From Bradymonadia bacterium (GTDB lineage: Bacteria > Myxococcota_A > Bradymonadia > UBA7976 > UBA1532), in the NCBI GenBank assembly GCA_049318805.1, contig JBMOFP010000005.1, positions 960 through 64,959 of the forward strand: a stretch of 64,000 bases of DNA, written 5' to 3'. Positions 5,149 to 58,843 of this stretch are shown here, one piece after another. How positions within the stretch are numbered: position 1 is the stretch's first letter; every line of letters starts with the position of its first letter. A program made the translations under genes and the position numbers. The notes below the pieces were generated by a model, which did no database searches, was not told where the DNA came from, and saw only the letters and a list, made by a program, of their open reading frames with translations.

Positions 5149-7353
5149 GTGAACCTGCCGTTCGGTCTGGGCGCGCGCAAGCCAAGGCACTACTCCGAGA
5201 TGCTTCGGATCGCCTGGCAGAACCGCGAGCATCCGCTCTACGCGTGGAAGGTCCTGAGTCAGGGTGTGTGCGACGGCTGCGCGCTGGGCACGACGGGGCT
5301 CAAGGACTGGACCATCGAGGGCACCCACCTCTGCCTCGTCCGCCTGAACCTGCTGCGCCTCAACACCATGGACGCGCTGGACGAGACGCGGCTGACCGAC
5401 GTGGAGGCGCTTCAGGCGCTCGATGGTCGGGCGCTGCGGGACCTCGGTCGACTGCCGTATCCGATGCGCCGCCGCCGCGGCGAGCCGGGCTTCACCCGCG
5501 TCTCGTGGGACACGGCGATCGAGTCTCTCGGCGCGCGTTTGGGGGCGGCGGATCCACGGCGGTGCGCGCTCTTCCTCACGTCGCGCGGGCTGACGAACGA
5601 GGTCTACTACACGATGCAGAAGGCGTGGCGGTGCCTCGGCAGCCCGCACGTCGACAACGCCGCCCGGCTCTGCCACAGCCCCAGCACATCGGCCATGAAG
5701 GCCACGCTCGGCGTCTCGGCGAGCACCTGCAGCTACATCGATTGGTACGATGCCGAGACGATCGTTTTCCTCGGCAGCAACCCCGCGAACGACCAACCCG
5801 TCGCGATGAAGTACCTCCATGAGGCTCGGGCGCGAGGCGCACGCATCTACGCGGTCAACCCCTTCGAAGAGCCCGGCCTCAAGCGCTACTGGGTCCCATC
5901 GACGCCGGCCTCCGCCGTCTTCGGGACGGAGATCGTCGAGCGGTTCTTCAAGGTCCGGACCGGCGGAGACCTCGCGTTTCTTTGTGCCGTCGCGAAGGCC
6001 CTCATTGCGCGCGGCGCGATCGACCGTGACTTCGTGGACGCGCACTGTTCGGGCTTCGAGGCGCTCCGCGAGGGCCTCGAAGCGCTCGACATGGAGACGT
6101 TGCGGGCGGCGTCCGGCGCGTCCGCCGAGGACCTCGAGGGTTTCGTCGACCTCATGGCGCGTACGCGGCGCGGCGTGCTCGTGTGGAGCATGGGCCTCAC
6201 ACAGCACGGGCATGGGGCCGAGACGGTCGCGGCACTGTGCAATCTCGGGCTCCTCCGGGGGTTCGTGGGGCGCGATGGCTGCGGGCTGATGCCCATTCGT
6301 GGACACAGCGGCGTCCAGGGTGGGGCGGAGATGGGCGCCTACACCACGGCCCTGCCCGGCGGCCTGTCCGTGGACGACCCAGCCGCTCGGGCCCACTTCT
6401 CGGCGTTGTGGGGCTTCGAGGTGCCGAGCGGGCCCGCCCTGCACACGGTCGGGATGGTGCAAGCCGCCGGTCGCGGCGAGCTCGACGTGATGTACGTCGT
6501 CGGCGGCAACTTCCTGGAGACGCTCCCGCAGGCGAGGCAAGTCGAGCAGGCGCTCGCGCAAGTGCCCGTGCGGATTCACCAGGACATCGTGGTGACGCGG
6601 CAGATGCTCATCGAGCCGGCCGAAGAGGTCTGGCTCCTGCCGGCCCGCACACGCTACGAGCAGGAGGGGGGCGGGACCGAGACGACGACCGAAAGACGGG
6701 TCGTCTTCAGTCCACACCTCGAGGGCCACGACGTCGGCGAAGCCCGCTCGGAGTGGCGCATCGTGCTCGACCTCGTGCGCGCCGCGCGCCCGGAGCGTGC
6801 CGCGCTCCTCGACCTGCCCGACGGCGCCGCGATTCGAGCCGACATCGCCCGCGCCGTGCCGCAGTACGCGCCCATCGCCGGCCTCTCTCGGCAGGGCGAC
6901 GTCTTCCAGTACGGCGGACGCCACCTGTGCGTCGACGGTGCTTTCCCTCTGCCCGGGGGGCGCGCCCACTTCTGGCCGGTCGCGCCGCCCGTCGTCGTGT
7001 CGCCGGAGGGCGCGCTGATGCTCTCCACCCGCCGTGGCAAGCAGTTCAACAGCATGGTCCAGGCCGACTACGACCCGTTGACGGGGGCCTACCGCGACGA
7101 TGTGCTCATGGCCGTCGAGGACGCGGTCGCGCGTGGACTTGAAGACGGCGAGCGTGTGCGGGTCCGCAGCGAGCACGGCGCCTGCGAGGCGGTCGTACGC
7201 TGCGCGGCGCTCCATCCGGGCAACGTGCAGATGCACTGGCCCGAGGCGAACGTGCTGTTGCCCGCGGACCGTCTTGATCCGCATGGCGGCGTGCCGGACT
7301 ACAACGCCCAGGTCTTCATCGAGCCGATTCCGCTCACGGCGAAACGAGCGTAA
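5149..7353 (+). CDS. FdhF/YdeP-family molybdopterin oxidoreductase (formate-dehydrogenase-alpha-like)
   Basis: The ORF encodes 734 aa from a GTG start. An N-terminal Cys cluster (CDGCALGTTG…C) precedes a molybdopterin-oxidoreductase body (FLTSRGLTNEVYY…CHSPS…, VFLGSNPANDQP). Confidence 0.85.
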   Translation: MNLPFGLGARKPRHYSEMLRIAWQNREHPLYAWKVLSQGVCDGCALGTTGLKDWTIEGTHLCLVRLNLLRLNTMDALDETRLTDVEALQALDGRALRDLGRLPYPMRRRRGEPGFTRVSWDTAIESLGARLGAADPRRCALFLTSRGLTNEVYYTMQKAWRCLGSPHVDNAARLCHSPSTSAMKATLGVSASTCSYIDWYDAETIVFLGSNPANDQPVAMKYLHEARARGARIYAVNPFEEPGLKRYWVPSTPASAVFGTEIVERFFKVRTGGDLAFLCAVAKALIARGAIDRDFVDAHCSGFEALREGLEALDMETLRAASGASAEDLEGFVDLMARTRRGVLVWSMGLTQHGHGAETVAALCNLGLLRGFVGRDGCGLMPIRGHSGVQGGAEMGAYTTALPGGLSVDDPAARAHFSALWGFEVPSGPALHTVGMVQAAGRGELDVMYVVGGNFLETLPQARQVEQALAQVPVRIHQDIVVTRQMLIEPAEEVWLLPARTRYEQEGGGTETTTERRVVFSPHLEGHDVGEARSEWRIVLDLVRAARPERAALLDLPDGAAIRADIARAVPQYAPIAGLSRQGDVFQYGGRHLCVDGAFPLPGGRAHFWPVAPPVVVSPEGALMLSTRRGKQFNSMVQADYDPLTGAYRDDVLMAVEDAVARGLEDGERVRVRSEHGACEAVVRCAALHPGNVQMHWPEANVLLPADRLDPHGGVPDYNAQVFIEPIPLTAKRA

Positions 7354-8060: not shown

Positions 8061-9485
8061 TTGCGCAAGACCAAGATCATCGCGACCATCGGTCCCGCCA
8101 CACGTTCGCCCGAGATGCTGCGCAAGCTCATCGACGCCGGCATGAACGTCGTGCGCATCAACATGAGCCACTCGACCCAGGACGAGGCCGCCGGGATCAT
8201 CGCCGACCTGCGGACCCTCTCCGACAAGGTCGGCATTCTCGTCGACACCAAAGGACCCGAGATCCGCACGAACGAGGTCGAGACCCCGTACGTCATCGAG
8301 CAGGGTGAATCGTTGATCGTGCGCGGCGGGGAGGGGGGCATGTCCGTGCCGGGTCTCCTTCGGGTGTCCCACCCGACCATCGCGCGTGTCCTCGACACGG
8401 GGGGCTCGGTGCTCGTCGACGACGGTCAGATCGAGCTGCTCGTCGTCGGCATCGACGGTGAGGACGTGCACTGCAAGGTCGTCCGCGGCGGGACCATCAA
8501 GACCCGCAAAGGGGTGAACATCCCCGACGCTCGACTCGGTCTACCGTTCATGTCCGAGCGCGACGCCTCGGACATCCGCTTCGCGGTGCGGCAGGGCGCC
8601 GACTTCATCGCCGCCTCTTTCGTCAGCGAACCGGAGGACGTCGAGCAGATCCGCGAGATGATCATTCGAGAGGGCGGCCGAACGGCGATCATCTCCAAGA
8701 TCGAGAGCCGACTGGGGGTCAAGAACCTCGCCGACATCATCGCGCTGTCCGACGGCATCATGGTCGCGCGCGGCGACCTCGGCGTGGAGATCCGCGCCGA
8801 GGAGGTGCCGGTCGTCCAGAAACAGATGATCGACGCCTGCCGAGCGGCCGGAAAGACCGTCGTCGTCGCCACCGAAATGCTCGAGTCCATGACCCGCAAC
8901 CCGCGTCCGTCACGCGCCGAGACCTCGGACGTGGCGAACGCGGTCTTCGAGGGCACCGACGCCATCATGCTGTCTCAGGAGACGACCGTCGGGAAGTACC
9001 CGATCGACGCGGTCGCGACCATGGGACGCATCGCGGAGTTCGCCGAACGCGAGACCGCGCGGACCTCGATGAAGCTGCCCGGGGGCGCACACGCCAGTGA
9101 GATCTCGGAGCTCATCTGCAAGGGCGCGTGGCTCGCGGCGAGCGAGCTGAAGGTCAAGGCCATCCTCGTTCCGACCTCGAGCGGCGCGACCGCCCTGCGC
9201 ATGTCGCGCTATCGGCCGGCGGTCAACATCCTCGTGACGACCCCCGAGCTCTCCGTCGCCCGTCGACTGTCCATCTGCTACGGGTGCCACGCGGTCACGA
9301 TGCGCATCTACGGGCGCATGGAGAACGTGATTCGGCGAACTTGTGAGGCCTTCGTCGAGGACGGCACGCTTCGACGCGGCGACATGGTCGCGGTGGTCGC
9401 GGGTGTGCCGACCGGGCGCTCCGGCACCACGAACCTGCTCACGATTCAATCCGTCGAGAACCTCGTGGGGCGCGAGGCCGAGTAG
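8061..9485 (+). CDS. pyk: Pyruvate kinase
   Basis: The gene starts with TTG and encodes LRKTKIIATIGPATRSPEMLRKLIDAGMNVVRINMSHS…TKGPEIR…, a canonical pyruvate kinase sequence, plus the C-terminal domain. Confidence 0.93.
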   Translation: MRKTKIIATIGPATRSPEMLRKLIDAGMNVVRINMSHSTQDEAAGIIADLRTLSDKVGILVDTKGPEIRTNEVETPYVIEQGESLIVRGGEGGMSVPGLLRVSHPTIARVLDTGGSVLVDDGQIELLVVGIDGEDVHCKVVRGGTIKTRKGVNIPDARLGLPFMSERDASDIRFAVRQGADFIAASFVSEPEDVEQIREMIIREGGRTAIISKIESRLGVKNLADIIALSDGIMVARGDLGVEIRAEEVPVVQKQMIDACRAAGKTVVVATEMLESMTRNPRPSRAETSDVANAVFEGTDAIMLSQETTVGKYPIDAVATMGRIAEFAERETARTSMKLPGGAHASEISELICKGAWLAASELKVKAILVPTSSGATALRMSRYRPAVNILVTTPELSVARRLSICYGCHAVTMRIYGRMENVIRRTCEAFVEDGTLRRGDMVAVVAGVPTGRSGTTNLLTIQSVENLVGREAE

Positions 9486-9493
9486 GCGCATTT

Positions 9494-9521
9494 CTTGACG
9501 CGTCTGGGTATGGGCATATCC
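9494..9521 (+). promoter_or_regulatory. Putative sigma-70-like promoter upstream of the PilZ gene (TTGACG-16-TATCCT)
   Basis: The site lies in an AT-richer island within a 70-bp intergenic region. AGGAG precedes the ATG at 9556. Confidence 0.25.
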
Positions 9522-9555
9522 TACCTTTCAGGATTATGACATACAGGAGCGCGAC

Positions 9556-9897
9556 ATGAAGACCGAGCCCACACTCCGCAACGGGCGGAATGAGACCCGC
9601 AAGCCGCTCGACATCTACGTCAACAAGATGATCAACGGCGTGCCTCACCTTGCCCGAACGCGAAACATCAGTCCTCGAGGCGTCTTCCTGCATCGACTGC
9701 TCGAGCCGCGCACGCCGGCCAAGGCGCGCATCGCGCTCGAGCTCGTCCTGCCGGGGTGCGACGAGGTCCTCTGGCTGGACGCTGAGATCGTGCACGGTCG
9801 CAACACCCGACGGGGTGTGGGCCTGCGGTTCGTCGATCTGAGTCCGAGAGACGAGGCCCTGATCCAGGGCTACCTCGACGCGGCCGCCGCGGCCTGA
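9556..9897 (+). CDS. Stand-alone PilZ-domain protein (predicted c-di-GMP receptor)
   Basis: The PilZ motifs RNETRKP (RxxxR) and NISPRG (D/N-x-S-x-x-G) are both present. Confidence 0.8.
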   Translation: MKTEPTLRNGRNETRKPLDIYVNKMINGVPHLARTRNISPRGVFLHRLLEPRTPAKARIALELVLPGCDEVLWLDAEIVHGRNTRRGVGLRFVDLSPRDEALIQGYLDAAAAA

Positions 9898-9949
9898 CAG
9901 CCTCGATTCCCCCCCACGGCATCGCCCTGGGCTGGTATGGTCGCGCCTG

Positions 9950-10279
9950 ATGGCGGTCCGTGTCCTGACACAGGTGGCTCGGCCGGGCGTTCGGCTCGCG
10001 AATCCCGTGCTGATGCCCGACGGCAAGCTCTTGCTGGGCCGCGGCACGGTCCTGGCCTCGCGCCACCTCGCGATGCTCCAAGACCTCGGCATCAAGGTCG
10101 TCGAGGTCGACGACGATGGTCGCCTGGGCCCGTGGGAGCTCGCGCCCGACGCCGATGCCTGGCTCGTGGCCCTCGAGGCCCGCTTCTCCACCGTGGCGCA
10201 CGATCGCCGTATGTTGGCGCTCAAAGAGGCCGTCCGCGACGTCTATCTGGACTACCTCCGGCGAGCGGAGATGCCCTGA
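9950..10279 (+). CDS. Hypothetical small protein (109 aa), translationally coupled to the HDOD gene
   Basis: The TGA stop at 10277-10279 is followed 1 nt later by the HDOD ATG. There is no recognisable domain. Confidence 0.45.
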   Translation: MAVRVLTQVARPGVRLANPVLMPDGKLLLGRGTVLASRHLAMLQDLGIKVVEVDDDGRLGPWELAPDADAWLVALEARFSTVAHDRRMLALKEAVRDVYLDYLRRAEMP

Positions 10280-10280
10280 G

Positions 10281-11198
10281 ATGGTGCTCTTTCGGCGGGC
10301 AGAGGTCGAACCCACGACCGAGGACCAGCTCATCGACGACATCGGCCGGCGCATGCTCAAGCGCCGCGTCGACGCGCTGAAGAGTCTGCCGACGTTTCCG
10401 GACTCCGTACTGCGTCTCAACAAGCTCCTGTCGGAGGATGGCGCCAAGGAGTCCCTGCAGAAGATCGCCTCGGCGATCGAGACCGATCCGGTCCTGTGCG
10501 CCCGGATCCTTCGGCTCGTGAACTCCGCGTTCTACGGCGTGAGCGGCGCGATCATCACCGTCTTCGACGCCTTGTTGATGCTGGGCCTCGACGTCGTGAA
10601 GGGGCTGATCGTTTCGACGACCGTGAGCGACATGTTCTCGGGCCGGGGCAGCGCGCTGGACGGCCTTTGGGAGCACTCGTACGGGTGCGCCATCGCCGCG
10701 GGGGCGCTCGGCCGAACGCTGGGCATGCCGCGCTGCGAGGAGCTCTCGGCCGCGGCGCTCATGCACGACATCGGCAAGATGGTGCTCGCCAGCCAGCTCA
10801 CGGACGAGTATCGCGCCGTGGTGGCCCAGGCCGTGGCCGACCGACGCTCGATTCGTGAGACCGAGGCGAAGCTGTTGGGCGTTACGCACGACGAGATCGG
10901 CCACTGGCTGGTCCTGCGGTGGAAGCTGCCCACCGCCATCGCCGAACCCATCGCGCGTCACCATGAGCCGATGAAGGCGGGCAAGTACGCGGACACCGCG
11001 GCGGTCGTTCACGTGGCCGACCTGATGATTCGAGGCTACGGCTTCGGCTTCGCGGGTGATCGAATCATGCCGCGGCTGGACGACGGCGCGTGGAAGCACC
11101 TCAGCCTCAACGCCGACAAGCTCCGCACGGCCGTGAAGCGCATGCAGGTCGACCTCCATGCCGCGATGAATCAGGTCAACACGATGCCGACGGTCTGA
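10281..11198 (+). CDS. HDOD-domain protein (HD-related output domain)
   Basis: The protein reads DSVLRLNKLLSEDGAKESLQKIASAIETDPVLCARILRLVNSAFYG…LWEHSYGCAIAA…MHDIGKMVL, which are typical HDOD motifs. Confidence 0.85.
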   Translation: MVLFRRAEVEPTTEDQLIDDIGRRMLKRRVDALKSLPTFPDSVLRLNKLLSEDGAKESLQKIASAIETDPVLCARILRLVNSAFYGVSGAIITVFDALLMLGLDVVKGLIVSTTVSDMFSGRGSALDGLWEHSYGCAIAAGALGRTLGMPRCEELSAAALMHDIGKMVLASQLTDEYRAVVAQAVADRRSIRETEAKLLGVTHDEIGHWLVLRWKLPTAIAEPIARHHEPMKAGKYADTAAVVHVADLMIRGYGFGFAGDRIMPRLDDGAWKHLSLNADKLRTAVKRMQVDLHAAMNQVNTMPTV

Positions 11199-11203
11199 CC
11201 ACC

Positions 11204-12865
11204 ATGCCGGACCGCGCCCAAGAGCCGGACTTCGACGCCCGCCTCGCGCAGCTCAAGCGAGAGCGGGACGAGTTCGCCCGAACCGTGATGGACCTCACCG
11301 CCCGCTTCGACGAGAAGGTCGAAGAGCTTTCGCTGGTTCGCCAGGTCGGCGACGAGCTCGGCTCGAGCCTCGACTTCGGGACGGTCTGCGGTCGAACCGT
11401 CGACCTGATCCACGAGGCGCTCGCGCCGGAGAACTGCTCGATTTTCGTCGTGACCTACGACCCGAACGGCCAGCCGCTGGGCTTGTGCCTGGCCGCGGGG
11501 CGGGGCGCGTTCGACGACGTCGCTCGCGTCTACGAGGTCGCGGCGGAGCACCCCCGTTTCGGGATCGGCGAAGGGGTCGCGGGCCACGTCGCCCTTCACC
11601 GCAAGGCCATCCGGCTGGGCAACGCCCCGGCCGACGCCCGTTTTCTTCGACGACCCGACGCGGCCACACAAACGCTGTCTCTCCTGTGTCTCCCTTTGCT
11701 CGTGCGCGATCGTGTGGTCGGGGTGATCAACCTCTCGGACTCCGCGCCGGACGCCTTCGAACCGCGGCACGAGCGGCTCCTCGCCATCATCGCCAACGCG
11801 GTCGCCATGGCGGCTGAAAACGCGCGCCTCTTTTCGGCCGTTCATCGGAGTCGCGAGGTCCTCGCGAACGAGAATCGGAGTCTGCGTCAGGCCCTGGCCG
11901 AGCGCTCGTCGCCCACGGGCCTCGTCGGGGCCAGCCCGGCGTTCCGCGCGGCGATGCAGCTCGTCGAGAAGGTCGCGGACACGACCGCGAGCGTGCTCAT
12001 TACGGGTGAGAGCGGCACGGGCAAAGAGATGATCGCCCGCACCATCCACCAGCTCAGCGAGCGCCGAGACCGTCCATTCGTCGCGATCAACTGCGCGGCT
12101 CTGCCGGAGTCGTTGCTCGAGGCCGAGCTCTTCGGCATCGAGCGCGGGGTCGCGACGGGGGTCGACGCCCGCGCCGGCACCTTCGAGCGGGCCGACGGGG
12201 GCACGCTCTTCCTCGACGAGATCGGCGACATGGCCCCCGCGACCCAGGCGAGGGTGCTCCGTGTCCTCCAGGAGCGGCAGGTCGTCCGCGTCGGGGCCCG
12301 AAAGCCGTTGGACGTGGACGTCCGTCTCGTGGCCGCGACCCATCGCGACCTGCCGGCGGAGATCAAGGCGACGCGGTTCCGAGAAGACCTGTACTACCGG
12401 CTCAAGGTCGTCACGCTGCATCTGCCGCCGCTGCGTGACCGCCGTGAGGACCTGATCCCGCTGGCGATGCACTTCATGGCCCGCTTCTCGGCGCGCCACG
12501 GACGCCCGGAGCGCCCGCTCTCGAGGGCGGCCGCTCGCGCGCTGCTCGCGCATCGGTGGCCCGGCAACGTGCGTGAGCTCGAACACGCCCTCGAGCAGGC
12601 GGTGCTCGTCGCCGAGGGGCAAGAGGTCGAGCCGGTCGACCTCGGGTTGTCGACCGTGAACGCGTCGGGCGTGCGCGTCGACCTGCCCGACCACCTCGAG
12701 GACCTGCAGGAGACCGTCGGCGAGGTCACCGAGGTGGCCGAACGGCGCCTGATCGAGCGGGCCCTGGCGGCTGTCGGGGGCAATCGGACCCAGGCCGCGC
12801 GGGCGCTGGGCGTGTCACGGCGCACGTTGCTCTACAAGCTCAAGCGACTCGGGATCGAGGCGTGA
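11204..12865 (+). CDS. Sigma-54-dependent transcriptional activator with N-terminal GAF domain and C-terminal Fis-type HTH
   Basis: The AAA+ sigma-54 interaction domain is recognisable ([15 protein letters not shown]…, the GAFTGA-like variant ERGVATG, and ESLLEAELFG). An HTH follows (QAARALGVSRRTLLYKLKRLG). The ATG at 11204 lies 5 nt after the HDOD stop. Confidence 0.9.
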   Translation: MPDRAQEPDFDARLAQLKRERDEFARTVMDLTARFDEKVEELSLVRQVGDELGSSLDFGTVCGRTVDLIHEALAPENCSIFVVTYDPNGQPLGLCLAAGRGAFDDVARVYEVAAEHPRFGIGEGVAGHVALHRKAIRLGNAPADARFLRRPDAATQTLSLLCLPLLVRDRVVGVINLSDSAPDAFEPRHERLLAIIANAVAMAAENARLFSAVHRSREVLANENRSLRQALAERSSPTGLVGASPAFRAAMQLVEKVADTTASVLITGESGTGKEMIARTIHQLSERRDRPFVAINCAALPESLLEAELFGIERGVATGVDARAGTFERADGGTLFLDEIGDMAPATQARVLRVLQERQVVRVGARKPLDVDVRLVAATHRDLPAEIKATRFREDLYYRLKVVTLHLPPLRDRREDLIPLAMHFMARFSARHGRPERPLSRAAARALLAHRWPGNVRELEHALEQAVLVAEGQEVEPVDLGLSTVNASGVRVDLPDHLEDLQETVGEVTEVAERRLIERALAAVGGNRTQAARALGVSRRTLLYKLKRLGIEA

Positions 12866-12869
12866 GATG

Positions 12870-13001
12870 TGCGCAATCGCTTGCGCATCGGCGGCATGCG
12901 CATGTGCAACGGCTTGCGCACGTCTCATCGGCTACGGCGAGAATGGGGTGCGCGTCCGGTGTACACCGCGAGGGTCCAGCAGGTATGCAAATGCTTGCGC
13001 A
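12870..13001 (+). promoter_or_regulatory. Three upstream activator-like repeat sites (GCAA-NN-GCTTGCGCA; the first is a perfect palindrome TGCGCAA-N4-TTGCGCA)
   Basis: The sites lie at 12870-12887, 12905-12920 and 12986-13001. Each contains the identical 9-mer GCTTGCGCA. They sit 75-205 bp upstream of a consensus sigma-54 promoter, immediately after the enhancer-binding protein gene. Confidence 0.55.
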
Positions 13002-13073
13002 GTTGGGCTGGCCGCATAACGTCGCCGTGGTGTGCGGGGCGGGGGCGCGCACCGTCCGCGGAGTGTCGACCCT

Positions 13074-13089
13074 TGGCACGGCCGTTGCT
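13074..13089 (+). promoter_or_regulatory. Sigma-54 (-24/-12) promoter TGGCACG-N4-TTGCT
   Basis: TGGCACGGCCGTTGCT is an exact match to the consensus, including spacing. It lies 42 bp upstream of the J-domain gene's ATG at 13131. Confidence 0.7.
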
Positions 13090-13130
13090 GTTGTAGCGCT
13101 CCGAGGCGTCTGACCCACGCCGGAGTACCC

Positions 13131-14150
13131 ATGGTTCTGACGCAGACCCACTGTTATCAGCTCCTCGGCCTGGCCGACTCCGCTTCCCTCTCCGAGGTGA
13201 AGCGGGCGTACCGTCGTCTGGCCCGAACGATGCACCCGGATGCCGGCGGTGACCACGCCCGGTTTGCGGAGATTACGGCGGCCTACAATGTCCTGACGGG
13301 GCGCATCAGCCCGGACAGGGCGGCGAAGAAGTCGCAGGCACCTGCCCGCGCGGCCGACGACTTCGATCGCGACGCCGCGTTCGCCGACTTTCGTCGGCGC
13401 GCGGCGACTTTTCGCTCGAAGGCCGAGGCGCGCGGCGCCGAGCGGGACGAACCCCGTTCGACCCCAGCGCCCAGCGCCGAGCCCGCGGCCAGGGAAGGCC
13501 GCGTCCCCTCCGACGATGGAGCGGGCTCCACGGCGGACCTGCGAGAGGCGACGGTCTCGCCCGAGGTGCCGGTCCAGCCCGGCTTCTGGGCGCGGCTGCG
13601 GACCCGTTTGCGCCGCGCACGCGCCGTGACCGGCTCCAACATCGAGCAAGCGCTCGTCGTCGACGTGGAGACCCTCCTGCGGGGCGCGGAGCCGACGGTC
13701 TCGGTGACACGTCTCGCGGCGTGCCCGTCCTGCGCCGGTGAAGGCGACGGGTCGTGCATCTGCCGCGGTGAGGGCCGACTTCTCGTACGCGAGAAGGTGA
13801 AGGTCGTCGTGCCCCCCGGCGCGCGGCCGGGGGCCCGCTTGCGGCTGAGGTCCAAAGGCAACGAAGGCCTCGCGGGCGAGCCCGCGGGGGACCTGTATCT
13901 GACCCTCGAGCCGGTCGAGGTCCCCGGGTATCTGCGCGAAGGCGCGGACCTCCGGGGCACCCTCGAGGTGCCGGCTTCGTTGGCCCGCCATGGAGGGGCG
14001 TTGGCCATTCCCACACCCTGGGGCTCGGTGCGACTGGATGTCCCGCCGGGTACCCGTGATGGCATGCGGTTCCGCCTGCCGGGGCAGGGTTTGCCTCGGT
14101 GGCGCGCCGCCGGCCGCGGTGAACTCTTCCTCCTCGTCGCGATCCGCTGA
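13131..14150 (+). CDS. DnaJ/CbpA-like J-domain co-chaperone with a degenerate single Zn-finger and DnaJ C-terminal domain
   Basis: The J domain has an HPD motif (YQLLGLADSASLSEVKRAYRRLARTMHPDAGGD). A low-complexity linker follows. Only CPSCAGEGDGSCICRGEG remains of the four canonical CxxCxGxG zinc-finger motifs. A beta-rich C-terminal domain completes the protein. A GGAG ribosome-binding site precedes the ATG. Confidence 0.8.
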   Translation: MVLTQTHCYQLLGLADSASLSEVKRAYRRLARTMHPDAGGDHARFAEITAAYNVLTGRISPDRAAKKSQAPARAADDFDRDAAFADFRRRAATFRSKAEARGAERDEPRSTPAPSAEPAAREGRVPSDDGAGSTADLREATVSPEVPVQPGFWARLRTRLRRARAVTGSNIEQALVVDVETLLRGAEPTVSVTRLAACPSCAGEGDGSCICRGEGRLLVREKVKVVVPPGARPGARLRLRSKGNEGLAGEPAGDLYLTLEPVEVPGYLREGADLRGTLEVPASLARHGGALAIPTPWGSVRLDVPPGTRDGMRFRLPGQGLPRWRAAGRGELFLLVAIR

Positions 14151-14461
14151 TGCGCGCTGGAAGCGTAGCCGGGCGCGCCGGCGTCGCGATCTCTGCGACC
14201 ACCGCGAAGCCGCAAGCGGTCGACCGGATCGTCGACGCCGTCGCCGGCCTCTTCGGCATGGCGCCGACGGTCAACTTCGCGCCCGTGGACGGGGTCTACA
14301 AGGCGGAGACGAACGTCGACGCCCGAAGCACGGGGCTCCAGGCCACGCAGCGCGTGAACGCGACGGGGCAGGGCGGGGCGGTTCGCCTCTACAACCGGCG
14401 CGGTCGAGAGATCTACGTGCAGCCGCCGGAGCTGGGCGGAATCATCGACGAGCACGTCTGA
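14150..14461 (+). CDS. Hypothetical protein (103 aa), translationally coupled to the J-domain gene by an ATGA overlap
   Basis: The ATG at 14150 overlaps the TGA of the preceding gene. There is no recognisable domain. Confidence 0.45.
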   Translation: MRAGSVAGRAGVAISATTAKPQAVDRIVDAVAGLFGMAPTVNFAPVDGVYKAETNVDARSTGLQATQRVNATGQGGAVRLYNRRGREIYVQPPELGGIIDEHV

Positions 14462-14519
14462 GGTCGTCGCCGCGCGGCGTCCTTTCATTGCCTCGCGTCT
14501 TCCCGTAAATCTCCCGCCG

Positions 14520-17209
<2,690 letters not shown>

Positions 17210-17213
<4 letters not shown>

Positions 17214-38856: not shown

Positions 38857-38941
38857 CCCGGCACTTCGGGCGGGCGCCCGACCGCAGTCCGCGTGTCCGA
38901 CTGCGCTTGTCTCCCCTGGATTCCCCGTAGAGGCGACGTTG

Positions 38942-41900
38942 ATGAACGAGCGTATCCGCGAGCTGTTCGATGCGGTGGTGCAGGATCCGTCCAATCACGT
39001 GGCGGTCGACGAGCTCGATGGCTTGTTGCGCGCCGAAGGCGAGTGGAGCTCGCTGGTGGACCTGCAGATCCATCTGGCGCAGAACAGCGCCGAGCCGGCG
39101 GACGCCGTTCGACGTCTCAAGATCGCGGGGCAGGTCACCGAGGCGAAGTTGTCGGACCCTCGGCGCGCGGTCGAGATCTACGGCGCTTCCGTCGAGGCGG
39201 ACACGGATGCGCGCGGGACTCTCGCGCACATGCGCACGCTGCTCGCTGGTCTCGAGGACTGGGCCGCGTGGGTCCAGGTCGGCGAGGCGGAGGTCGAGCG
39301 CATCGAGTCCCCGGCCGAGCGCGCTGACCTGATCTACGAAATCGGCGAGGTGCTCGAGGAGAAGATCGCCGACCAGGAACGCGCGATGGTCTGCTACCAG
39401 GCCGCGTTCCAGACCGACCAGGCGTGCTTGCGGGCGCTGTACGCCGCACGCCGAATCTATCGACAGACGGGCCACTGGGAGATGGTGGCGCAGCTCCTCG
39501 ACCTCGAGCTGCAGAGTGTGACGGACCCGGATCGGCAGGCAGAGATCTACCAGGAGCTGGGGAACCTGCTGCTGTACGATCTGCAGAACACCGAGATGGC
39601 GCGCCACTGCTTTGCGGCCTACTTGAAGCTGCGTCCGGACGACGCCGACATGCAGGCGGCGCTCGCGGAGCTCGGCGGCGCTCCGGGCGAGCCCCTCGGA
39701 GATCAGACGGAGTCGGCGCCGACCGGCCAGGTCGGTGAAGACACTGAGATGGTCGGTGAGGGGACTGAGGCGCTCGCGGGTGAAGCGACCGAGATGGGCG
39801 CACCGGCGATCGCCGAGCCCGACTTGGAGGCCGCGCCGGAGCCGGTCGCCGAGGCCGCGCCGGAGCCTGTTGTGGAGGCCGCGCCGGAGCCTGTTGTGGA
39901 GGCCGCGCCGGAGCCTGTTGAGGAGGCCGCGCCGGAGCCTGTTGTGGAGTCCGCGGTGGAGCCTGTTGCGGAGGCCGCACCGGAGCCGGTCGTCGAAGCC
40001 GCGCCGGAGCCGGTCGTCGAAGCCGCTCCGGAGCCGGTCGTCGAAGCCGCTCACGATCCGGTCGTGGAGGCCGCGCAGGCGCCTGTCGCGGAGGCCACGC
40101 CCTTCGTCGAAACGACGGCTCCGGTCGACCTCGCGCAGCTGCGCGCGCTCGCGGAGTCCGGGGATCGTGAGGCGCAGCTCGAGGCGCTGGAGGCCCTCGC
40201 GAAGGAGGCCCCCGCTTCCGAGGGCCTGGCGGAACTCTACCTCGGACTGGTCGCGAGTGCGCCCGGTGAGCTGGATGTGTACCTGCGCGTCGGCCGACAC
40301 CTGGGGCCTGCCTCGGCCTCGACCCTGAAGGCCATCGCCAGCGGTCTCGAGACCCTCGCGCGCGAGAACGCTGGAGGCCAGGGGGCCGCGTTGAGCGCCG
40401 AGCGGGTCCTCTTCGGCACATTGCACCTCGACGAGGGCAAGACCGCAGACTTCAAGCTGCGTGAGCTGGCGAAGACCGCGGGCGCCGACCCGCTCGCGCG
40501 CGAGTGGCAGATTCAGCGGCTCGTCGAGACGGGCAAGTGGCGGAACATCCAGCAGATGCTGACCGACGCCGCCGGCGGTGAGACGCCCGAGTCGCGTGGA
40601 GCGGCCTTGCGTCGGATGGCCGTGCTGGCCCTCGAGCGGGCTCGGGACACGGACAAGGCGACCGATTTCTGGCGCCAGGTGCACCTCGCCGACAAGCATG
40701 ACCGCGAAGCCCGTGCCGCGTTGCAGTCGCTCTATGCCGCGTCCGGCAAGTGGAACGCCTACGTCGACGTGCTCAAGCTCGACGTCGAGGAGATCCCCGA
40801 CAGCGACCGCGCCCGCAAGGTGGACGGGCTGAAGGCCCTCATTCGCGTCTACACGCAGCACCTGAACCTCGACGCGATGGTCGTCACGCTCTACGGGCAG
40901 GTGCTCGCGCTGGCGCCGGACGACGCCGAGGCGATCGCGGCCCTGGTCGAAAAGTACGAGGGCATGCGGCGGTGGCCCGACCTCGTCGCCCTGCTGCAGA
41001 AGCAGGTCGACGGCGCGGTCGAGCAGAGCCAGCGAGTCGACCTCAATCTGCGCATCGCGCACCTGTACCTCGACAAGTTCCGCAACCAGGCCGAGGCCAT
41101 CAAGGCCTACGAGGCCGTGCTGGCCGACGAGCCGGCGAACCGCACGGCGATCGAAGCCCTGCAGGACATGTACGAGAAGCGGCGCGAGTGGGAGAAGCTC
41201 GTCGCCGTTCAGCGGCAGCTGGCCGACGCCGAGCCCGACTCGGCCGCGCGCGCCGCCAAGTACAAGGAGATCGCGGACAACGCGACCAAGAAGATTCGTA
41301 AGCCCTCCATCTCCCTCGAGCTGTGGGAGCAGGTGCTCGAGATCGAGCCGGGGGACGTCGACGCGCTCCGCGCTTTGGTCGCGCTGTACGAGTCCGAGAA
41401 GCAGTGGGACCGGCTCGTCGAGGCTGTGGAAGCCCTCGTCGAGCGCGTCTCCGACACGGCCGAAAAGATCGACCTGCTCCAGCGCGCCGGCACGGTGCTC
41501 CAGGACCGGGTCGGTGACCGCGCGGGCAGCGTTCGTTTCTGGCAGGGGCTCCTCGCCCTCGACGCCGAGAATCGGCGCGCCCACGAGGCCCTCAAGAAGG
41601 CGCTGGTGGAGCTCGGGGACTGGGACGGCCTGACCGCGCTCTTCGGTGATCGCGGCAAGTGGGACGAACTCGTCCGTCTGCTCGACGGCCAGGTGGGTGT
41701 GCAGAAGGACGACGCGACGCGCATCGATCTGCTGTTCCGCACCGCCACGATCTTCGATACGCATCTCGGCCAGAAGGATCGGGCCGTTCGCGCGCTCGAG
41801 CGGATTCTCCAGCTCGAGCCACGGAACGTGGTCGGTGCCCGCGCTCTCGAGCCCATCTACGAGGAGGCGAAGGAGTTCCGGAAGCTCGCGAACGTGCTCG

Positions 41901-44900
41901 AGGTCATCCTCGACCACGAAGAGGAGCCGTCGGCCCGTCGTCGGTTGATGATGCGGAGCGCATCGGTCGCCGAGCAGTCGCTGCGGAATCCCGACGGCGC
42001 TTTCGAGTGGGTGCGCCGTGTACTCCGGGAGTTGCCGGCCGACGCGGAAGCGCGGACGGAGCTGGAGCGCCTCGGCGGTTTGACGAACCAGTGGGCGACG
42101 GTGCACGACGACCTCGTCGAGGCGCTGGGGGCCGTCGGGCCCGACGCGGACGCCCAGCTCGCCCTGACTCTGACGCTCGCGCGCCTCCTGGACGAGAAGC
42201 TCGGCCAGAGCCACGACGCCCTCCAGCGCTTCCACGACGCGCTGTCCATCGACCCCGACAATCGCGCCGCGCTCGACGCCGTGGAGCAGCTCTACGCGCG
42301 TATGGCCAACTGGCCCGAGCTCCTCGGCATCCTCGACCGGAAGATCGCGCTCACGGACACCCTCGACGAGCGCAAGGTCCTGCTCCGCAAGCAGGCCGCG
42401 ATCTTCGAGGAGCAGCTGGACGACGCGCTCTCTGCCATCGAGAAGCACCGCGCCGTCGTGGACGAGGACAAGACGGACACCGAGGCCCTCGCGGCGCTCC
42501 ATCGGCTCTTCAAGGCCGGTGAACAGTGGGATGCGCTGCACGCGGTGCTCCTGCAGCAGTTGGCGCTTGCCCTCGAGGCGGGCGATGCGTCGGTCACCGC
42601 GCTCAAGCTCGAGCTCGGGGCCATCGAAAACGCGCACCTCGGTCAGACCGGGGAAGCCGTCGAGCGGTACCGCGAGGTTCTCGCGGTCGAAGCCACCCAC
42701 GTCGGCGCGCGTGAGGCGCTCGAGGCGTTGCTGGACGACCCCGAGCACCGCCGAAACGTCGCGCTCATCCTGGAGCCCCTCTACCAGGACCAGGGGGCCT
42801 GGCAACCGTTGGTCCGCGTGCTCGAGATCGAGCTCGAAGAGACGACCGACGGGCCCGCTCGATTCGAGCTGCTCGAGCGGATCGGGACGCTCCAGGCGGA
42901 GCGCATCGCCGACGTCGACCTCGCCTTCGATGCGTTCGCGCGCGCTTTCCGCGAGACGCCGTCGAGCCGCGTCGCCGTGACCCGACTCACGGAGCTCGCC
43001 GAGGCGGGCCAGAAGTTCAGCGAGTTCACGGCGCTGCTCGAGGACGTCGTGCCCGACGTGAAGGACGCCGGGCTCTCCCTCGACCTGCTCGCGCGCCTCG
43101 CGACGACCTACGAGGAGAAGCTCGATGATGGCGCGCGGGCCATCGACGCGCACAACCGCGTGCTCCTCGTGGAGCCGGAGCACCGGCCGTCGATCGTCGC
43201 GCTCGAGCGCCTGTACCAACGCAACGAGATGTGGCCCGAGCTCCTGTCGATCTACCGGCGGCAGCTCGAGCTCGCGCCCGATGCCGGCACGAAGGAAGAG
43301 CTGCAGTTCCGCGCCGGCGCGCTGCTCGAGGACATGCTCGGGGACGCGCCCGAGGCGATCGCGACCTACGGAGAGGTGCTGTCGCAAGACCCCTCGAACG
43401 TGCGCGCGCTTCAGGCCCTCGACCGCCTCTACCAGCAGCAGGCGATGTGGGTCGAGCTCTCCGAGTGCATCGAGAAGCAGCTCGCGCTGTCGACGGATGT
43501 GGCCGAGCAGACCCGACTTCGGGTTCGCCTCGGCACACTCCACGAGGGCGCCCTCGGCAACGCCCTGCTCGCCATCGAGACCTACCGCGCGGTGCTCGCC
43601 GCCGATCCCGACAACGCGGAGGCCATCGACGCCCTCGAGCGGCTGCTCGCGGAGCCGAGCCACCAGCCCACCATCGCCGACATCCTCGAGCCCCTCTACC
43701 GCGCCCGCGACGAGTGGCAGAAGCTCATCGGGGTCTACGAGATTCAGCGTGAGCACGCCGAGGAGCCGAAGCGGCAAATCGAGCTGCTCCATCGAATCGC
43801 CGATCTGCACCAGAACCGCGGCGGCTCGCCCGAGGAGACGTTCCGGAGCTACGCGCGGGCCTTCGCGGTCGAACCGAGCGACCCCCGAACGCTGGCTGAG
43901 CTCTCGCGGATCGCCGAGGCCTTCGAGATGTGGGGCGACCTCGTCGCCGTCTACGAGGTGCAGGTCGAAGAGATCGCGGACGCGGTCGTCGCGTCGGACG
44001 TGCACAAGCGGATCGCGCGGGTGCAGCGTGCGCAGCTCAACGACCTCGAAGGTGCACGTCGGCACTACGAGGCGGCGTACGCGAGCGACGATACGGATGG
44101 TGAGGCCATCGACGCGCTCGAGGCGCTCTACTTCCACTTCCAGCAGTGGAACGAGCTCGTCGCTGTGCTTGTCCGCAAGGTGGAGCTCACCGAGGACGTC
44201 GACGCGAAGAAGGGCCTGCTTTTCCGCGTCAGCGCGCTCTACGAGGAGATGCTCGAGGATCCGTATCGGGCCGTCGAGACGTACCGTGCCGTGCTCGAGC
44301 TGGACGCCGTCGACGCACGCGCGCTCGACGCCCTCGAGCGCATCTTCCTCACCCTCGGCCAGTGGGAGGACCTCATGGAGGTGCTCCACCGCAAGGCGGA
44401 GCTGACCGAGGAGTTGAGCGCACGCAAGGACATCTACTACGTCATCGGCGCGGCTTATGACCGTGAGCTGGACGACCTGACGCGCGCCGTCGAGACGTAC
44501 CAGAAGGTCCTTTCGTGGGACGCCGAGGACCAGACCGCGCTCACCGCCCTCGACCGCTTGTACGCGCGGATGGAGAAGTGGGACGAGCTGCTCGCCGTGC
44601 TTCGGCGCTCCGTCGAGGTCGAGGGTGAACCCGAGGCCCGGGTCGCGCTGCGCTTCCGCGTCGCGAACCTCTACGAGACCTCCATGGACGACGTGGCGCA
44701 GGCCGTGTCCGGCTACGCCTCGATTCTCGCGGATGTGCCGGGCCACGAGCCCAGCCTCCAAGCCCTGGAAGGACTCGTCCGTTCGGACCGCGAGGCGCGC
44801 CGAGCGACCTCGGTGCTCGAGCCCGTGCACCAGGCGGCCGGGGCCTGGGAGCGTTTGATCGGGGTGTGGCGCAGCCTGCTGGACGTGACCACGGATCCCG

Positions 44901-57356: not shown

Positions 57357-57436
57357 GCGACGGAGGTTATAGCAGGCGAGGGCGGTTGCCGCGCGCGTCC
57401 GTGGTGCCTACCATCGACCCCGGAGGACCTCGAGGC

Positions 57437-58843
57437 ATGGCGGACCGGATTCTGGTCGTCGACGACGAGGCCAACCTGCGCAAGGTGCTCGGCGCCATGC
57501 TGCGGCGGGATGGCTACGAGGTCGACACGGCCGAGGACGGCGCCGAGGCTCTGCTGATGCTCGACGACGAGCGGTACGCGGCGGTCCTGACCGATCTGCG
57601 CATGCCGCAGGTCGACGGCATGGCCGTGCTGCGGCGGGTCATGGTGCGCAGCCCCGAGACGCCGGTGATCCTGCTCACGGCCCACGGTACGGTCGACGCG
57701 GCGGTGGAGGCGTTGAAGGCGGGCGCGTTCGACTTCATCACGAAGCCTTTCGACCAGGCCGAGCTCGGCCGCATCCTGGCCAAGGCGGTACGGACCAGCG
57801 CGCTCGCGGAGTTCGAAAGCACGAACCTGGCCCGGGGGGACGGGTCGGGACGCTACGGCTTGATCGGGAACTCACCGCTCATGCACCGCGTCTTCGAGAT
57901 CATCGACCGGGTCGCGGCGACGCCCTCCACGGTCCTCATCACGGGGGAGAGCGGGACGGGCAAGGAGTTGGTGGCCCGCGCGCTCCACGAGCACAGCGGG
58001 CGCGCGGGGCGTCCGTTCATTCGTGTGAACTGCGCCGCGATCCCCGAGGGCCTCATCGAGTCGGAGCTCTTCGGCTACGAGAAGGGCGCCTTCACCGGCG
58101 CGGTCGCCAGCAAACCCGGTCGCTTCGAGCTCGCCCACGGGGGGACGCTCTTCCTCGACGAGATCGGCGAGGTCTCGACCGAGATGCAGGTCAAGCTGCT
58201 CCGGGCCGTGCAGGAGAGCGAGTTCGAGCGGGTGGGCGGCATCACGACGCGTCGGGTCGAGGTGCGGCTCATCGCCGCGACGAACCGCGACCTCGCCAAG
58301 GACGTGGCCGACGGCAAGTTCAGAGACGACCTGTACTATCGGCTCAACGTGGTCCCGATCGCGCTGCCGCCGCTGCGTGACCGGCCGGGAGACGTACCCG
58401 CGCTGGCCGAGCACATGCTCGGGAAGTACATGCAGAAGCTCTCGCGCAAGGGACTGGAGCGCTTCTCGGACGACGCCATGACGGCCCTGCAGGCCTACCC
58501 CTGGCCAGGCAACATCCGCGAGCTCGAGAATGTGATCGAGCGCACGCTGCTCTTCTGCGACGGGCCCGTGATCGAGGTGAAGGACCTGCCCATCGAGTTC
58601 ACCGGGCGCTTGGCGGGGGGGCCAGCGCAGCCCCCGATTCCCCCGTTCTCTGGCCCCGTGGGCGTCACCGCGCTCAAGGACGTGGTGCGTTGGACGACCC
58701 AGGTCGTGGAGCGCGACCTCATCGAGCGCGCCCTCGCCGAGACCGCCGGCAACGTGACACGCGCCGCGCGAAAGCTGGAAATCTCGCGCAAGAGCTTGCA
58801 GATCAAGATGAAGGAACTTGGGCTCCGCGAACCGGAGCGGTAA
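57437..58843 (+). CDS. NtrC-family sigma-54-dependent response regulator (REC + AAA+ + Fis HTH)
   Basis: The receiver domain reads ILVVDDE…LTDLRMP. The AAA+ domain has [24 protein letters not shown] and [15 protein letters not shown]. The C-terminal HTH reads [28 protein letters not shown] ribosome-binding site is present. Confidence 0.92.

Follow-up and report, generated by a model that had tools for sequence, protein, structure and literature searches.

The window analysed here is one stretch of 64,000 nucleotides of an uncultured myxobacterium. We annotated six co-directional ORFs in it by Pfam and NCBIfam, encoding a PilZ-domain protein, a 109-aa protein, an HDOD-domain protein, an enhancer-binding protein (EBP), a J-domain protein (J-protein) and a 103-aa protein. 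An earlier sequence-only reading of this DNA had proposed the order PilZ, small protein, HDOD and GAF-EBP, with which the Pfam domains agree. The genes, the enhancer sites (UAS) and the other features of the locus are as follows.

9495..9522, plus strand: sigma-70-like promoter candidate TTGACG-16-TATCCT upstream of the PilZ gene (consensus match only)
9556..9897, plus strand: PilZ-domain protein, 113 aa (Pfam PilZ, E 2.2e-10)
9950..10279, plus strand: 109-aa protein with no known domain (no Pfam or NCBIfam match), stop codon abutting the HDOD start
10281..11198, plus strand: HDOD-domain protein, 305 aa (Pfam HDOD, E 8.7e-52)
11204..12865, plus strand: EBP, 553 aa, GAF - AAA+ (sigma-54 interaction) - HTH_8 (Pfam)
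12870..12887, no strand assigned: UAS1, TGCGCAATCGCTTGCGCA, perfect palindrome TGCGCAA-N4-TTGCGCA (position conserved in 13 loci)
12903..12920, no strand assigned: UAS2, TGTGCAACGGCTTGCGCA, 33 bp from UAS1 (spacing invariant in 13 loci)
12984..13001, no strand assigned: UAS3, TATGCAAATGCTTGCGCA, 81 bp from UAS2 and 90 bp before the -24 element (13 loci)
13011..13026, no strand assigned: conserved box GCCGCATAACGTCGCC (consensus CGCCGGATAACGTCGC) between UAS3 and the promoter (cross-locus comparison)
13074..13089, plus strand: sigma-54 promoter, -24/-12 element TGGCACGGCCGTTGCT (TGGCACG-N4-TTGCT), sole exact match in the window
13102..13125, plus strand: highly conserved 5'-UTR block CGAGGCGTCTGACCCACGCCGGAG, including the Shine-Dalgarno (SD) sequence GGAG at 13122-13125 (cross-locus comparison)
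13131..14150, plus strand: J-domain protein, 339 aa (Pfam DnaJ, PF00226, E 2e-12, and DnaJ_C)
14150..14461, plus strand: 103-aa orphan protein, start overlapping the J-gene stop (TGATG), no family match
14465..14479, plus strand: terminator-like hairpin with T-rich tail at the end of the J operon, before mutS at 14520 (consensus match only)

The sigma-70-like candidate ahead of the PilZ gene is the only consensus match between 9400 and 14600, where 0.2 would be expected. The c-di-GMP motifs of the PilZ protein, RxxxR (R11, R15) and (D/N)xSxxG (S39, G42), are intact and invariant in 9 orthologues, so that the protein could bind c-di-GMP and is a candidate receptor for it. The 109-aa gene is conserved in 9 loci and belongs to a small, stand-alone family (47 representatives among 1.84 billion proteins, all of 92-143 aa); a single-sequence AF2 prediction of its product reached a pLDDT of 52. 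The HDOD gene ends 5 bp before the EBP gene at this locus and overlaps it in others, the pair being found abutting or overlapping in L005, L006, L171, L172 and the Binatia locus L173, and it is translationally coupled to the activator gene across phyla.

In the EBP, Pfam recovers PF00158 (Sigma54_activat, E 1e-66), GAF (5e-16) and HTH_8 (1.4e-13), the Walker A (GESGTGKE) and Walker B (LFLDEIG) motifs are invariant and the sensor motifs are intact. Orthologues are 69-97% identical, with ELFGIERGVATGV and the recognition helix RRTLLYKLKR invariant. The sigma-54-contacting L1 loop, placed at about 12146-12163 by its distance to a 10-residue protein stretch, reads GVATGV and not the canonical GAFTGA. 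GVATGV (ELFGIERGVATGV) is present in all EBP orthologues and in about 110 of the best 120 hits; it is a trait of the whole subfamily, noted earlier for D. vulgaris DVUA0100 only. The sequence-only reading had overlooked it, along with the HDOD-EBP coupling across phyla and the close likeness to the three-enhancer design of NorR and PexR. In PspF the F and T of GAFTGA contact region I of sigma-54, and every substitution tested in the loop abolished open-complex formation (PMC3467059); since GVATGV lacks the Phe that makes this contact, canonical activation by the EBP cannot be assumed. The protein is no NifA or NorR equivalog by NCBIfam, where its scores fall below the cut-offs (365 vs 529 and 345 vs 476, respectively). 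The best solved relatives of its GAF domain are cNMP-binding phosphodiesterase GAFs, at an E of only about 1e-8 and alongside NifA, and N-L...F...H-E takes the place of the NKFDE signature. The earlier proposal that this domain binds cGMP or c-di-GMP thus finds no support here and stays a conjecture. Known ligands of EBP GAF domains are as diverse as 2-oxoglutarate, formate, NO-iron and H2O2-metal (PMC12754779, PMC2941729), and given this diversity the ligand cannot be inferred.

Directly behind the EBP gene we found three copies of TG(Y)GCA-N6-TGC(R)CA, at 12870, 12903 and 12984, the first of which begins 5 bp past the EBP stop codon. The three palindromic UAS of the sequence-only reading are thereby confirmed as 18-mers, including the perfect palindrome of the first; the starts it gave for the corresponding 15-mers were 1-3 bp off and are corrected to 12873, 12906 and 12987. 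The repeat GCTTGCGCA occurs at 12879, 12912 and 12993, with one unrelated minus-strand copy at 8119, and a check against background density in the 64-kb window upheld its enrichment (4 copies vs 0.71 expected, a count reached in 0 of 100 shuffles). Exact matches to TGYGCA-N6-TGCRCA number 2 in 64 kb vs 0.01 expected. As had been claimed, the sigma-54 element at 13074-13089 is exact and ends 42 bp before the ATG at 13131, and TGGCACGGCCGTTGCT is the only TGGCAC-N5-TTGCW of the window (0.02 expected). Both the UAS repeats and the sigma-54 element are therefore far above chance. From the usual -12 numbering, transcription is predicted to start at about 13100. A consensus scan of 12866-13130 gave no sigma-70-like promoter. 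The stretch separating the EBP gene from the J gene has no terminator either, so that part of the J-operon transcript could come from read-through. Terminator-like matches in the region, among them the one closing the J operon, number 2 vs 2.3 expected.

The J-protein combines an HPD J-domain, a non-G/F linker rich in Arg, Ala and Pro, one mini zinc centre and DnaJ-type C-terminal domains, and could be aligned to the solved DnaJ 6jzb. Invariant are H35, P36 and D37 of the HPD motif as well as C198, C201, C209 and C211. The zinc region consists only of CPSCxGxG and CxCxGxG, that is one zinc centre vs the canonical two, and gives no match to PF00684; the reduced zinc region described before is thus real, with two Cys pairs in one centre in place of the single CxxC pair. 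Assignment to class A DnaJ was rejected, as the Gly/Phe region and the four CxxCxGxG are missing and the DnaJ_bact score is 146 vs a cut-off of 377, and so was a CbpA equivalog (78 vs 403). The 103-aa protein, correctly described as coupled and of no known family, belongs to no Pfam family, individual members giving at most sporadic hits to unrelated families (E up to 10), and falls into only 31 clusters among 5.8 billion proteins, all hypothetical. It is translationally coupled to the J gene and predicted to be largely disordered: AF2 with a 24-sequence alignment gave a pLDDT of 55, with only a helix (23-34) and a beta-hairpin (78-90) predicted, the hairpin being the best-predicted part (block pLDDT 69-90).

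Phylogenetic footprinting covered 13 loci, from Myxococcota and one Binatia genome (L173). The same architecture recurs in these related loci at J-protein identities down to about 40%, and the gene order PK-PilZ-109aa-HDOD-EBP-J-small persists where the EBPs are 54-97% identical. Amid otherwise diverging intergenic DNA, the triplet of sites, its spacing and the -24/-12 element stay conserved. UAS1 and UAS2 lie 33 bp apart in 13/13 loci and UAS2 and UAS3 81-84 bp, and the distance from UAS3 to the -24 element is 48, 58-59 or 90-92 bp, differences that amount to whole helical turns. Positions G4, C5, T13, G14 and C15 are invariant in all 39 sites, and TGGCAC-N5-nYGCn is kept in 12 of the 13 loci, with CGGCAC in L173. 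The two-site pattern with 33-bp spacing was confined to the orthologous loci and found in 0 of about 160 control loci, and together with the footprinting this supports the earlier reading of EBP, UAS, promoter and J operon as belonging together.

Two further elements stand out in the comparison. The clade in which UAS3 and the promoter are 90 bp apart shares the box at 13011..13026, which L170 carries in inverted orientation; in our reading it bears no resemblance to the IHF consensus. The leader block at 13102..13125 has no Rfam match. An RNA thermometer or otherwise SD-sequestering leader was dismissed, its hairpin (-8.6 kcal/mol, z about 0) being no stabler than shuffles and the anti-SD pairing being disrupted in L004, L088 and L089 (L004 clade).

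Several loci depart from the common order. In L173, which has no J gene, the triplet, with the same 33/81-bp geometry, directly follows the orthologous EBP gene; this EBP shares the recognition helix RRTLLYKLKR, and HDOD, EBP and UAS are kept without the PilZ or 109-aa gene. In L009 and L169 an unlinked J operon with no adjacent EBP retains the UAS triplet and the promoter. No UAS, sigma-54 promoter or J gene lies within 6 kb of the EBP module in the Bradymonadia locus L171, and in L011 the J gene directly follows the PilZ gene, without EBP or UAS. Loci that share the half-site TGCGCA share the recognition helix as well. The sites track the EBP, as the triplet of L173 adjoins the orthologous EBP gene despite the absence of the J gene. 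With an architecture conserved across loci and a triplet that travels with the EBP gene without the J gene, we infer that EBP and UAS triplet are a cognate pair, a pairing that is well supported.

In our view a sigma-54 switch upstream of the gene for a DnaJ-like co-chaperone and a small orphan gene probably forms a self-contained regulatory unit. Sequence and comparison show its domains and sites, how significant the sites are, that their geometry is conserved and that they occur together with the activator; the steps of its operation are modelled on the NorR/PexR/NtrC family. Dimers of the GAF-AAA+-HTH activator (11204-12865) would bind the three palindromic enhancers just downstream of their own gene, and the three dimers, 33 and 81 bp apart, would seed the active hexamer. 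Repression of the EBP by its GAF domain would be lifted by some signal, which either acts on that domain directly or arrives through the coupled HDOD and 109-aa proteins, perhaps with PilZ. ATP hydrolysis would then convert the sigma-54 holoenzyme at TGGCACG-N4-TTGCT (13074-13089) from the closed to the open complex. The short-leader mRNA starting near 13100 would encode the J-domain co-chaperone and its coupled, mostly disordered partner. With its HPD motif, DnaJ-type substrate-binding domains and one zinc centre the J-protein may recruit Hsp70/DnaK, and the 103-aa protein may act as stoichiometric modulator or client. The unlinked J operon of L009/L169, with triplet and promoter retained, counts in favour of this unit. 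The GVATGV loop, the absence of rpoN from the window, the potential read-through, the bare EBP module of L171 and the J gene of L011 count against it.

A different activator could serve the same promoter and enhancers, leaving the GAF-EBP a mere syntenic neighbour. The window contains a second EBP, at 57335-58840, which is of the response-regulator type and has the canonical GAFTGA loop. Such a division would also suit the J operon of L009/L169, the L171 module and the synteny of the region, which in this lineage extends to the housekeeping neighbours pyruvate kinase and MutS. Yet the sites begin 5 bp past the stop codon of the GAF-EBP, follow its orthologue in L173 at unchanged geometry and share the half-site TGCGCA only where its recognition helix is shared too, and we regard service by another factor as very unlikely. 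We are equally sceptical that the GVATGV protein is a repressor, an anti-activator or a sigma-70-type activator like VpsR, TyrR or Rhodobacter NtrC, with the sigma-54 promoter fired by another factor or silent. The PspF substitutions speak for this, as does PexR, which demonstrates that EBPs can also repress (PMC12754779), and VpsR is an EBP homologue without these residues that works with sigma-70 (PMC6158489). Against it, GVATGV is invariant across a large subfamily whose members keep intact ATPase motifs, these EBPs adjoin a strongly conserved -24/-12 element in 13 loci with no sigma-70-like promoter in 12866-13130 here, and Kazakov et al. judged DVUA0100, which has GVATGV, a sigma-54 activator whose predicted regulon has sigma-54 promoters (PMC4641369).

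A c-di-GMP-to-sigma-54 pathway, with c-di-GMP as a signal that the GAF domain senses or PilZ relays, is unlikely, though less so than the two preceding explanations. The invariant PilZ motifs favour it, and PilZ adjoins the module in all loci other than L173; in L011, which lacks the EBP, it still adjoins the J gene. HDOD domains are moreover common in signalling proteins. There is, however, no GGDEF or EAL gene in the neighbourhood, the cNMP-type GAF similarity is weak with NKFDE altered, and L173 manages without PilZ or the 109-aa gene. Known c-di-GMP-responsive EBPs such as FleQ and VpsR (PMC6158489 for VpsR) bind the nucleotide directly and are not known to do so via a PilZ partner. Because the syntenic gene order includes housekeeping neighbours, synteny alone argues only weakly for functional coupling of PilZ; the earlier label of a c-di-GMP module accordingly stays conjecture, nothing mechanistic tying PilZ to the EBP. 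Returning to the self-contained switch, we offer as a speculation, somewhat less probable than c-di-GMP signalling, that GVATGV-loop GAF activators and coupled HDODs are a distinct, phylum-spanning class of sigma-54 activators. These would engage sigma-54 without the canonical Phe and be gated by a protein partner (HDOD, plus 109-aa protein and c-di-GMP-loaded PilZ in Myxococcota) and not by direct ligand, with a specialised Hsp70 co-chaperone/client pair as output here.

Our literature search gave no account of this UAS or of any sigma-54-controlled J-protein, in line with the earlier claim that motif and regulon are undescribed; the type of switch, a GAF activator with three enhancers and a consensus sigma-54 promoter, is already well known, and this is a further example. 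CbpA-CbpM of E. coli, in which the gene of a non-class-A J-protein precedes that of a small (about 100 aa) co-translated partner, is similar in gene arrangement only. The 103-aa protein matches no Pfam family, including the MerR-type domain of CbpM, and the J-protein, unlike CbpA, keeps a mini zinc centre. FleQ and VpsR are likewise EBP-family regulators linked to c-di-GMP signalling (PMC6158489 for VpsR). Both, however, are themselves c-di-GMP-binding proteins and VpsR works together with sigma-70, whereas the present locus has a sigma-54 promoter and nothing related to c-di-GMP apart from its separate PilZ gene. The Desulfovibrio vulgaris Hildenborough protein DVUA0100 shares the GVATGV loop and is a predicted activator of sigma-54 promoters regardless (PMC4641369). 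Likened by description only, it differs in a long uncharacterised N-terminal region with no annotated GAF, in a predicted type III secretion regulon and in having no reported HDOD partner.

NorR of E. coli (norVW) has the same GAF - AAA+ - HTH layout and, next to the regulator gene, a sigma-54 promoter with three dyad enhancers ahead of it. Its site is GT-N7-AC, in contrast to TGYGCA-N6-TGCRCA here, and the GVATGV loop and the NorR equivalog score set our protein apart, as does the target, a divergent NO reductase operon in NorR and a J-protein operon co-directional with the regulator here. In NorR all three enhancers are needed for the active oligomer and the GAF domain represses AAA+ (PMC2831303, PMC2941729). 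PexR of Myxococcus xanthus, a GAF-type bEBP from Myxococcota with an autoinhibitory GAF, acts on stress genes whose consensus sigma-54 promoters are preceded by three interrupted palindromes (5 + N6 + 5) (PMC12754779). It differs in its sites (CACCG-N6-CGGTG), its canonical GAFTGA loop, its metal-binding, H2O2-sensing GAF, its targets ahpC and katB and the absence of HDOD or PilZ partners. The EBP described here carries a predicted C-terminal Fis-type HTH, and three conserved dyad sites track its gene across phyla. With three dyad enhancers at fixed phasing and an N-terminal GAF domain, the locus is, by its sequence features, of the NorR/PexR-type three-enhancer design, and the precedent of NorR (PMC2831303) and PexR (PMC12754779) for three enhancers with a GAF-EBP argues for the proposed unit.

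Six co-directional genes lie between the genes for pyruvate kinase (8061-9485) and mutS (14520-17213), in a window with a G+C content of 69% whose closest relatives are metagenome-assembled Myxococcota genomes, part of them labelled Nannocystaceae. The fourth gene encodes an enhancer-binding protein (EBP), the fifth a J-domain protein (J-protein), and the 265-bp gap between the two holds three 18-mers, the predicted upstream activator sites UAS1 to UAS3.

Features of the locus; all genes listed are co-directional
9495-9522: candidate sigma-70-like promoter, before the PilZ gene
9556-9897: PilZ protein
9950-10279: 109-aa protein, no family
10281-11198: HDOD protein
11204-12865: EBP with GAF, sigma-54-interaction AAA+ and HTH_8 domains
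12870-12887: UAS1, TGCGCAATCGCTTGCGCA, perfect palindrome
12903-12920: UAS2, TGTGCAACGGCTTGCGCA
12984-13001: UAS3, TATGCAAATGCTTGCGCA
13074-13089: sigma-54 promoter element, TGGCACGGCCGTTGCT
13131-14150: J-domain protein with DnaJ-type C-terminal domains
14150-14461: 103-aa protein, ATG overlapping the stop of the J gene
14465-14479: terminator-like hairpin, after the 103-aa gene

The 109-aa, HDOD and EBP genes abut in the window, and at other loci they overlap, an arrangement that indicates a single operon. No rpoN gene was found within the 64-kb window. Further downstream (38939-50917, plus strand) a giant ORF, about 3992 aa long and consisting mostly of tetratricopeptide repeats, was noted.

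The sequence-only reading had placed three activator repeats behind the EBP gene and a consensus sigma-54 -24/-12 element before the J gene, and both were borne out by counts over the window. Over the 64 kb, the 9-mer GCTTGCGCA has four copies where 0.71 are expected, three of the four being located in the gap, and the degenerate dyad TGYGCA-N6-TGCRCA occurs twice (0.01 expected). The promoter element is the sole match to TGGCAC-N5-TTGCW in the window (0.02 expected) and ends 42 bp before the ATG of the J gene. With the usual numbering, this position puts the probable transcription start of the J operon at about 13100, with a predicted leader of about 31 nt carrying GGAG at 13122-13125.

Orthologous loci were gathered by exact-protein look-ups and collection scans, a metagenome scan yielding at least two extra orthologues. 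Among these loci the identity of the J-protein ranges from 92% down to about 40%, and the intergenic DNA has diverged outside these distinct blocks: the three dyads, the -24/-12 element, the box CGCCGGATAACGTCGC and the leader. Spacing was compared in 13 loci. The distance from UAS1 to UAS2 is 33 bp in every one of them, and that from UAS2 to UAS3 is 81-84 bp. From UAS3 to the -24 element the distance falls into three classes (90-92 bp in the main clade, 58-59 bp in L009, L170, L172 and L173, and 48 bp in L006), which differ by whole helical turns. The consensus of the 39 sites is TG(Y)GCA-N6-TGC(R)CA with G4, C5, T13, G14 and C15 invariant. The two-site pattern at 33-bp spacing was found in the orthologous loci only and was absent from about 160 unrelated loci.

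Two natural cases link the triplet to the EBP as its putative regulator. In the Binatia locus L173 (5153-7936, GCA_046327955.1) the EBP orthologue is 47% identical and has the same recognition helix, RRTLLYKLKR; the HDOD gene lies upstream and overlaps it, and after the EBP gene follow the same three sites, TGCGCA-N6-TGCGCA, 33 and 81 bp apart, and then CGGCACG-N4-GTGCG, without a J gene. Conversely, in L009 and L169 the J operon has no EBP linked to it, yet triplet and promoter are kept. Downstream of the L173 sites we found one doubtful 64-aa ORF followed by a convergent HAD hydrolase gene, and a small RNA or a micro-protein could serve as target there; comparison of the 64-aa ORF with the 103-aa family gave an hhalign probability of 0.1, and membership was rejected. 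L171 (Bradymonadia, GCA_046290225.1, 4304-7638) keeps the module of pyruvate kinase, PilZ, small protein, HDOD and EBP. Within 6 kb of this module neither a J operon nor a UAS pair nor a sigma-54 promoter is present, so that the target of its EBP must presumably be located elsewhere. At L011 (uncultured Nannocystaceae, 5450-6960) a PilZ gene is followed directly by a J-protein gene; no HDOD, EBP, UAS triplet or 103-aa gene was found at this locus, and upstream there is just a weak TGGCAT-N5-AAGCA.

Two further conserved blocks flank the promoter. The consensus box CGCCGGATAACGTCGC (13011-13026 in the window) is situated between UAS3 and the promoter. The clade whose spacing is longer (90 bp) carries it, and L170 has it in inverted orientation. 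Judged by eye, this GGATAAC box is without WATCAA-N4-TTR, and an IHF site was rejected as its identity. The leader block CGAGGCGTCTGACCCACGCCGGAG (13102-13125) contains the Shine-Dalgarno sequence and hardly varies between loci. Its conservation extends to the loop and exceeds the need of a simple hairpin. We considered an RNA thermometer, with the leader sequestering the Shine-Dalgarno sequence, and dropped this reading as unsupported, because the hairpin that the block could form is no stabler than shuffled sequences, one clade has a disrupted anti-Shine-Dalgarno stem, and a search for an Rfam match to the block found none.

The EBP, at 69-97% identity, is much better conserved than its predicted target, the J-protein, which has 47-94% in the multiple alignment (40-92% by BLASTP). 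The ATPase motifs of the EBP are intact. The sigma-54-contacting L1 loop (12146-12163, residues ~315-320) reads GVATGV instead of GAFTGA, as it does in all orthologues and in about 110 of the best 120 database matches, distributed over Myxococcota, Bradymonadia, Binatia, Thermodesulfobacteriota and Methylomirabilia. PspF contacts region I of sigma-54 through the Phe and Thr of its GAFTGA loop, and open complexes no longer form once substitutions are made in that loop (PMC3467059). GVATGV has been noted once before, in DVUA0100 of D. vulgaris, where predicted regulons led the authors to argue that function is retained (PMC4641369). The conserved promoters beside GVATGV EBPs point the same way, suggesting that the loop stays functional, and add natural evidence that bears on the need for the GAFTGA phenylalanine. 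A second EBP in the window (57335-58840, plus strand), a response regulator with receiver, AAA+ and HTH_8 domains, has the canonical GAFTGA; both loop types thus coexist in one genome.

The EBP does not reach the equivalog thresholds for NifA and NorR. The GAF domain had been taken to imply a small ligand such as cGMP or c-di-GMP; its resemblance to cNMP-binding phosphodiesterase GAFs and to NifA is weak, and no ligand could be named. The possible c-di-GMP input has as its sole basis the neighbouring PilZ gene, whose RxxxR and (D/N)xSxxG motifs are invariant. The Binatia locus lacks the PilZ and 109-aa genes and keeps HDOD, which points to HDOD rather than PilZ as the more constant partner of the EBP. 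HDOD is a widespread signalling domain for which we know of no established function, and a pair with an EBP conserved across phyla offers a concrete context for testing it.

The J-protein has an invariant HPD motif, no Gly/Phe region and a single mini zinc centre (CPSCxGxG...CxCxGxG), and scores below the DnaJ and CbpA equivalog thresholds. Its linker (residues ~60-170, window 13190-13640) varies in length, is rich in Arg/Ala/Pro instead of Gly/Phe and holds a conserved segment F-x-x-F-R-R-R-A-A-x-F-R. The 103-aa protein belongs to an orphan family with 31 clusters among 5.8 billion proteins. An AF2 model of the protein, built with 24 sequences (pLDDT 55), predicts disorder over most of the chain, together with one helix and one beta-hairpin, the latter being the best-predicted part. 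No convincing Pfam or PDB-sequence match was found for it, the best being a marginal FliF stretch (E 0.008), and no support was found for a FlaG-like or CbpM-like identity. The 109-aa protein represents a small family of stand-alone proteins with no Pfam match and just marginal PDB matches, to MoeA/gephyrin and RNA polymerase beta-barrel segments (E >0.02); single-sequence AF2 gave a pLDDT of 52.

In the literature searched, we found no account of HDOD together with EBPs, of modules combining PilZ, HDOD and an EBP, or of a J-protein under sigma-54 control. The enhancer sequence and the target are previously undescribed, while systems of this type, in which a GAF-EBP is combined with three enhancers and a sigma-54 promoter, are by now well understood. 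The more interesting threads, namely the GVATGV loop and the coupling with HDOD, concern the whole subfamily and not this locus specifically. For an uncultured Myxococcota lineage the locus provides a testable regulon prediction that comprises regulator, exact predicted sites, promoter and target.

Of the readings considered, a NorR/PexR-like unit has the best support, with binding, activation, start and signal being inferred. Three EBP dimers would occupy the phased enhancers, the GAF domain would repress the AAA+ domain until the signal arrives, and hexamer formation and ATP hydrolysis would then open the sigma-54 closed complex, upon which the J-protein and its orphan partner would be expressed. 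NorR requires all three of its enhancers, and its GAF domain is directed at the surface that interacts with sigma-54 (PMC2831303, PMC2941729); PexR of M. xanthus combines three 5-N6-5 palindromes with an autoinhibitory GAF domain (PMC12754779). Both systems share with the present locus a GAF-EBP and three enhancers upstream of a sigma-54 promoter.
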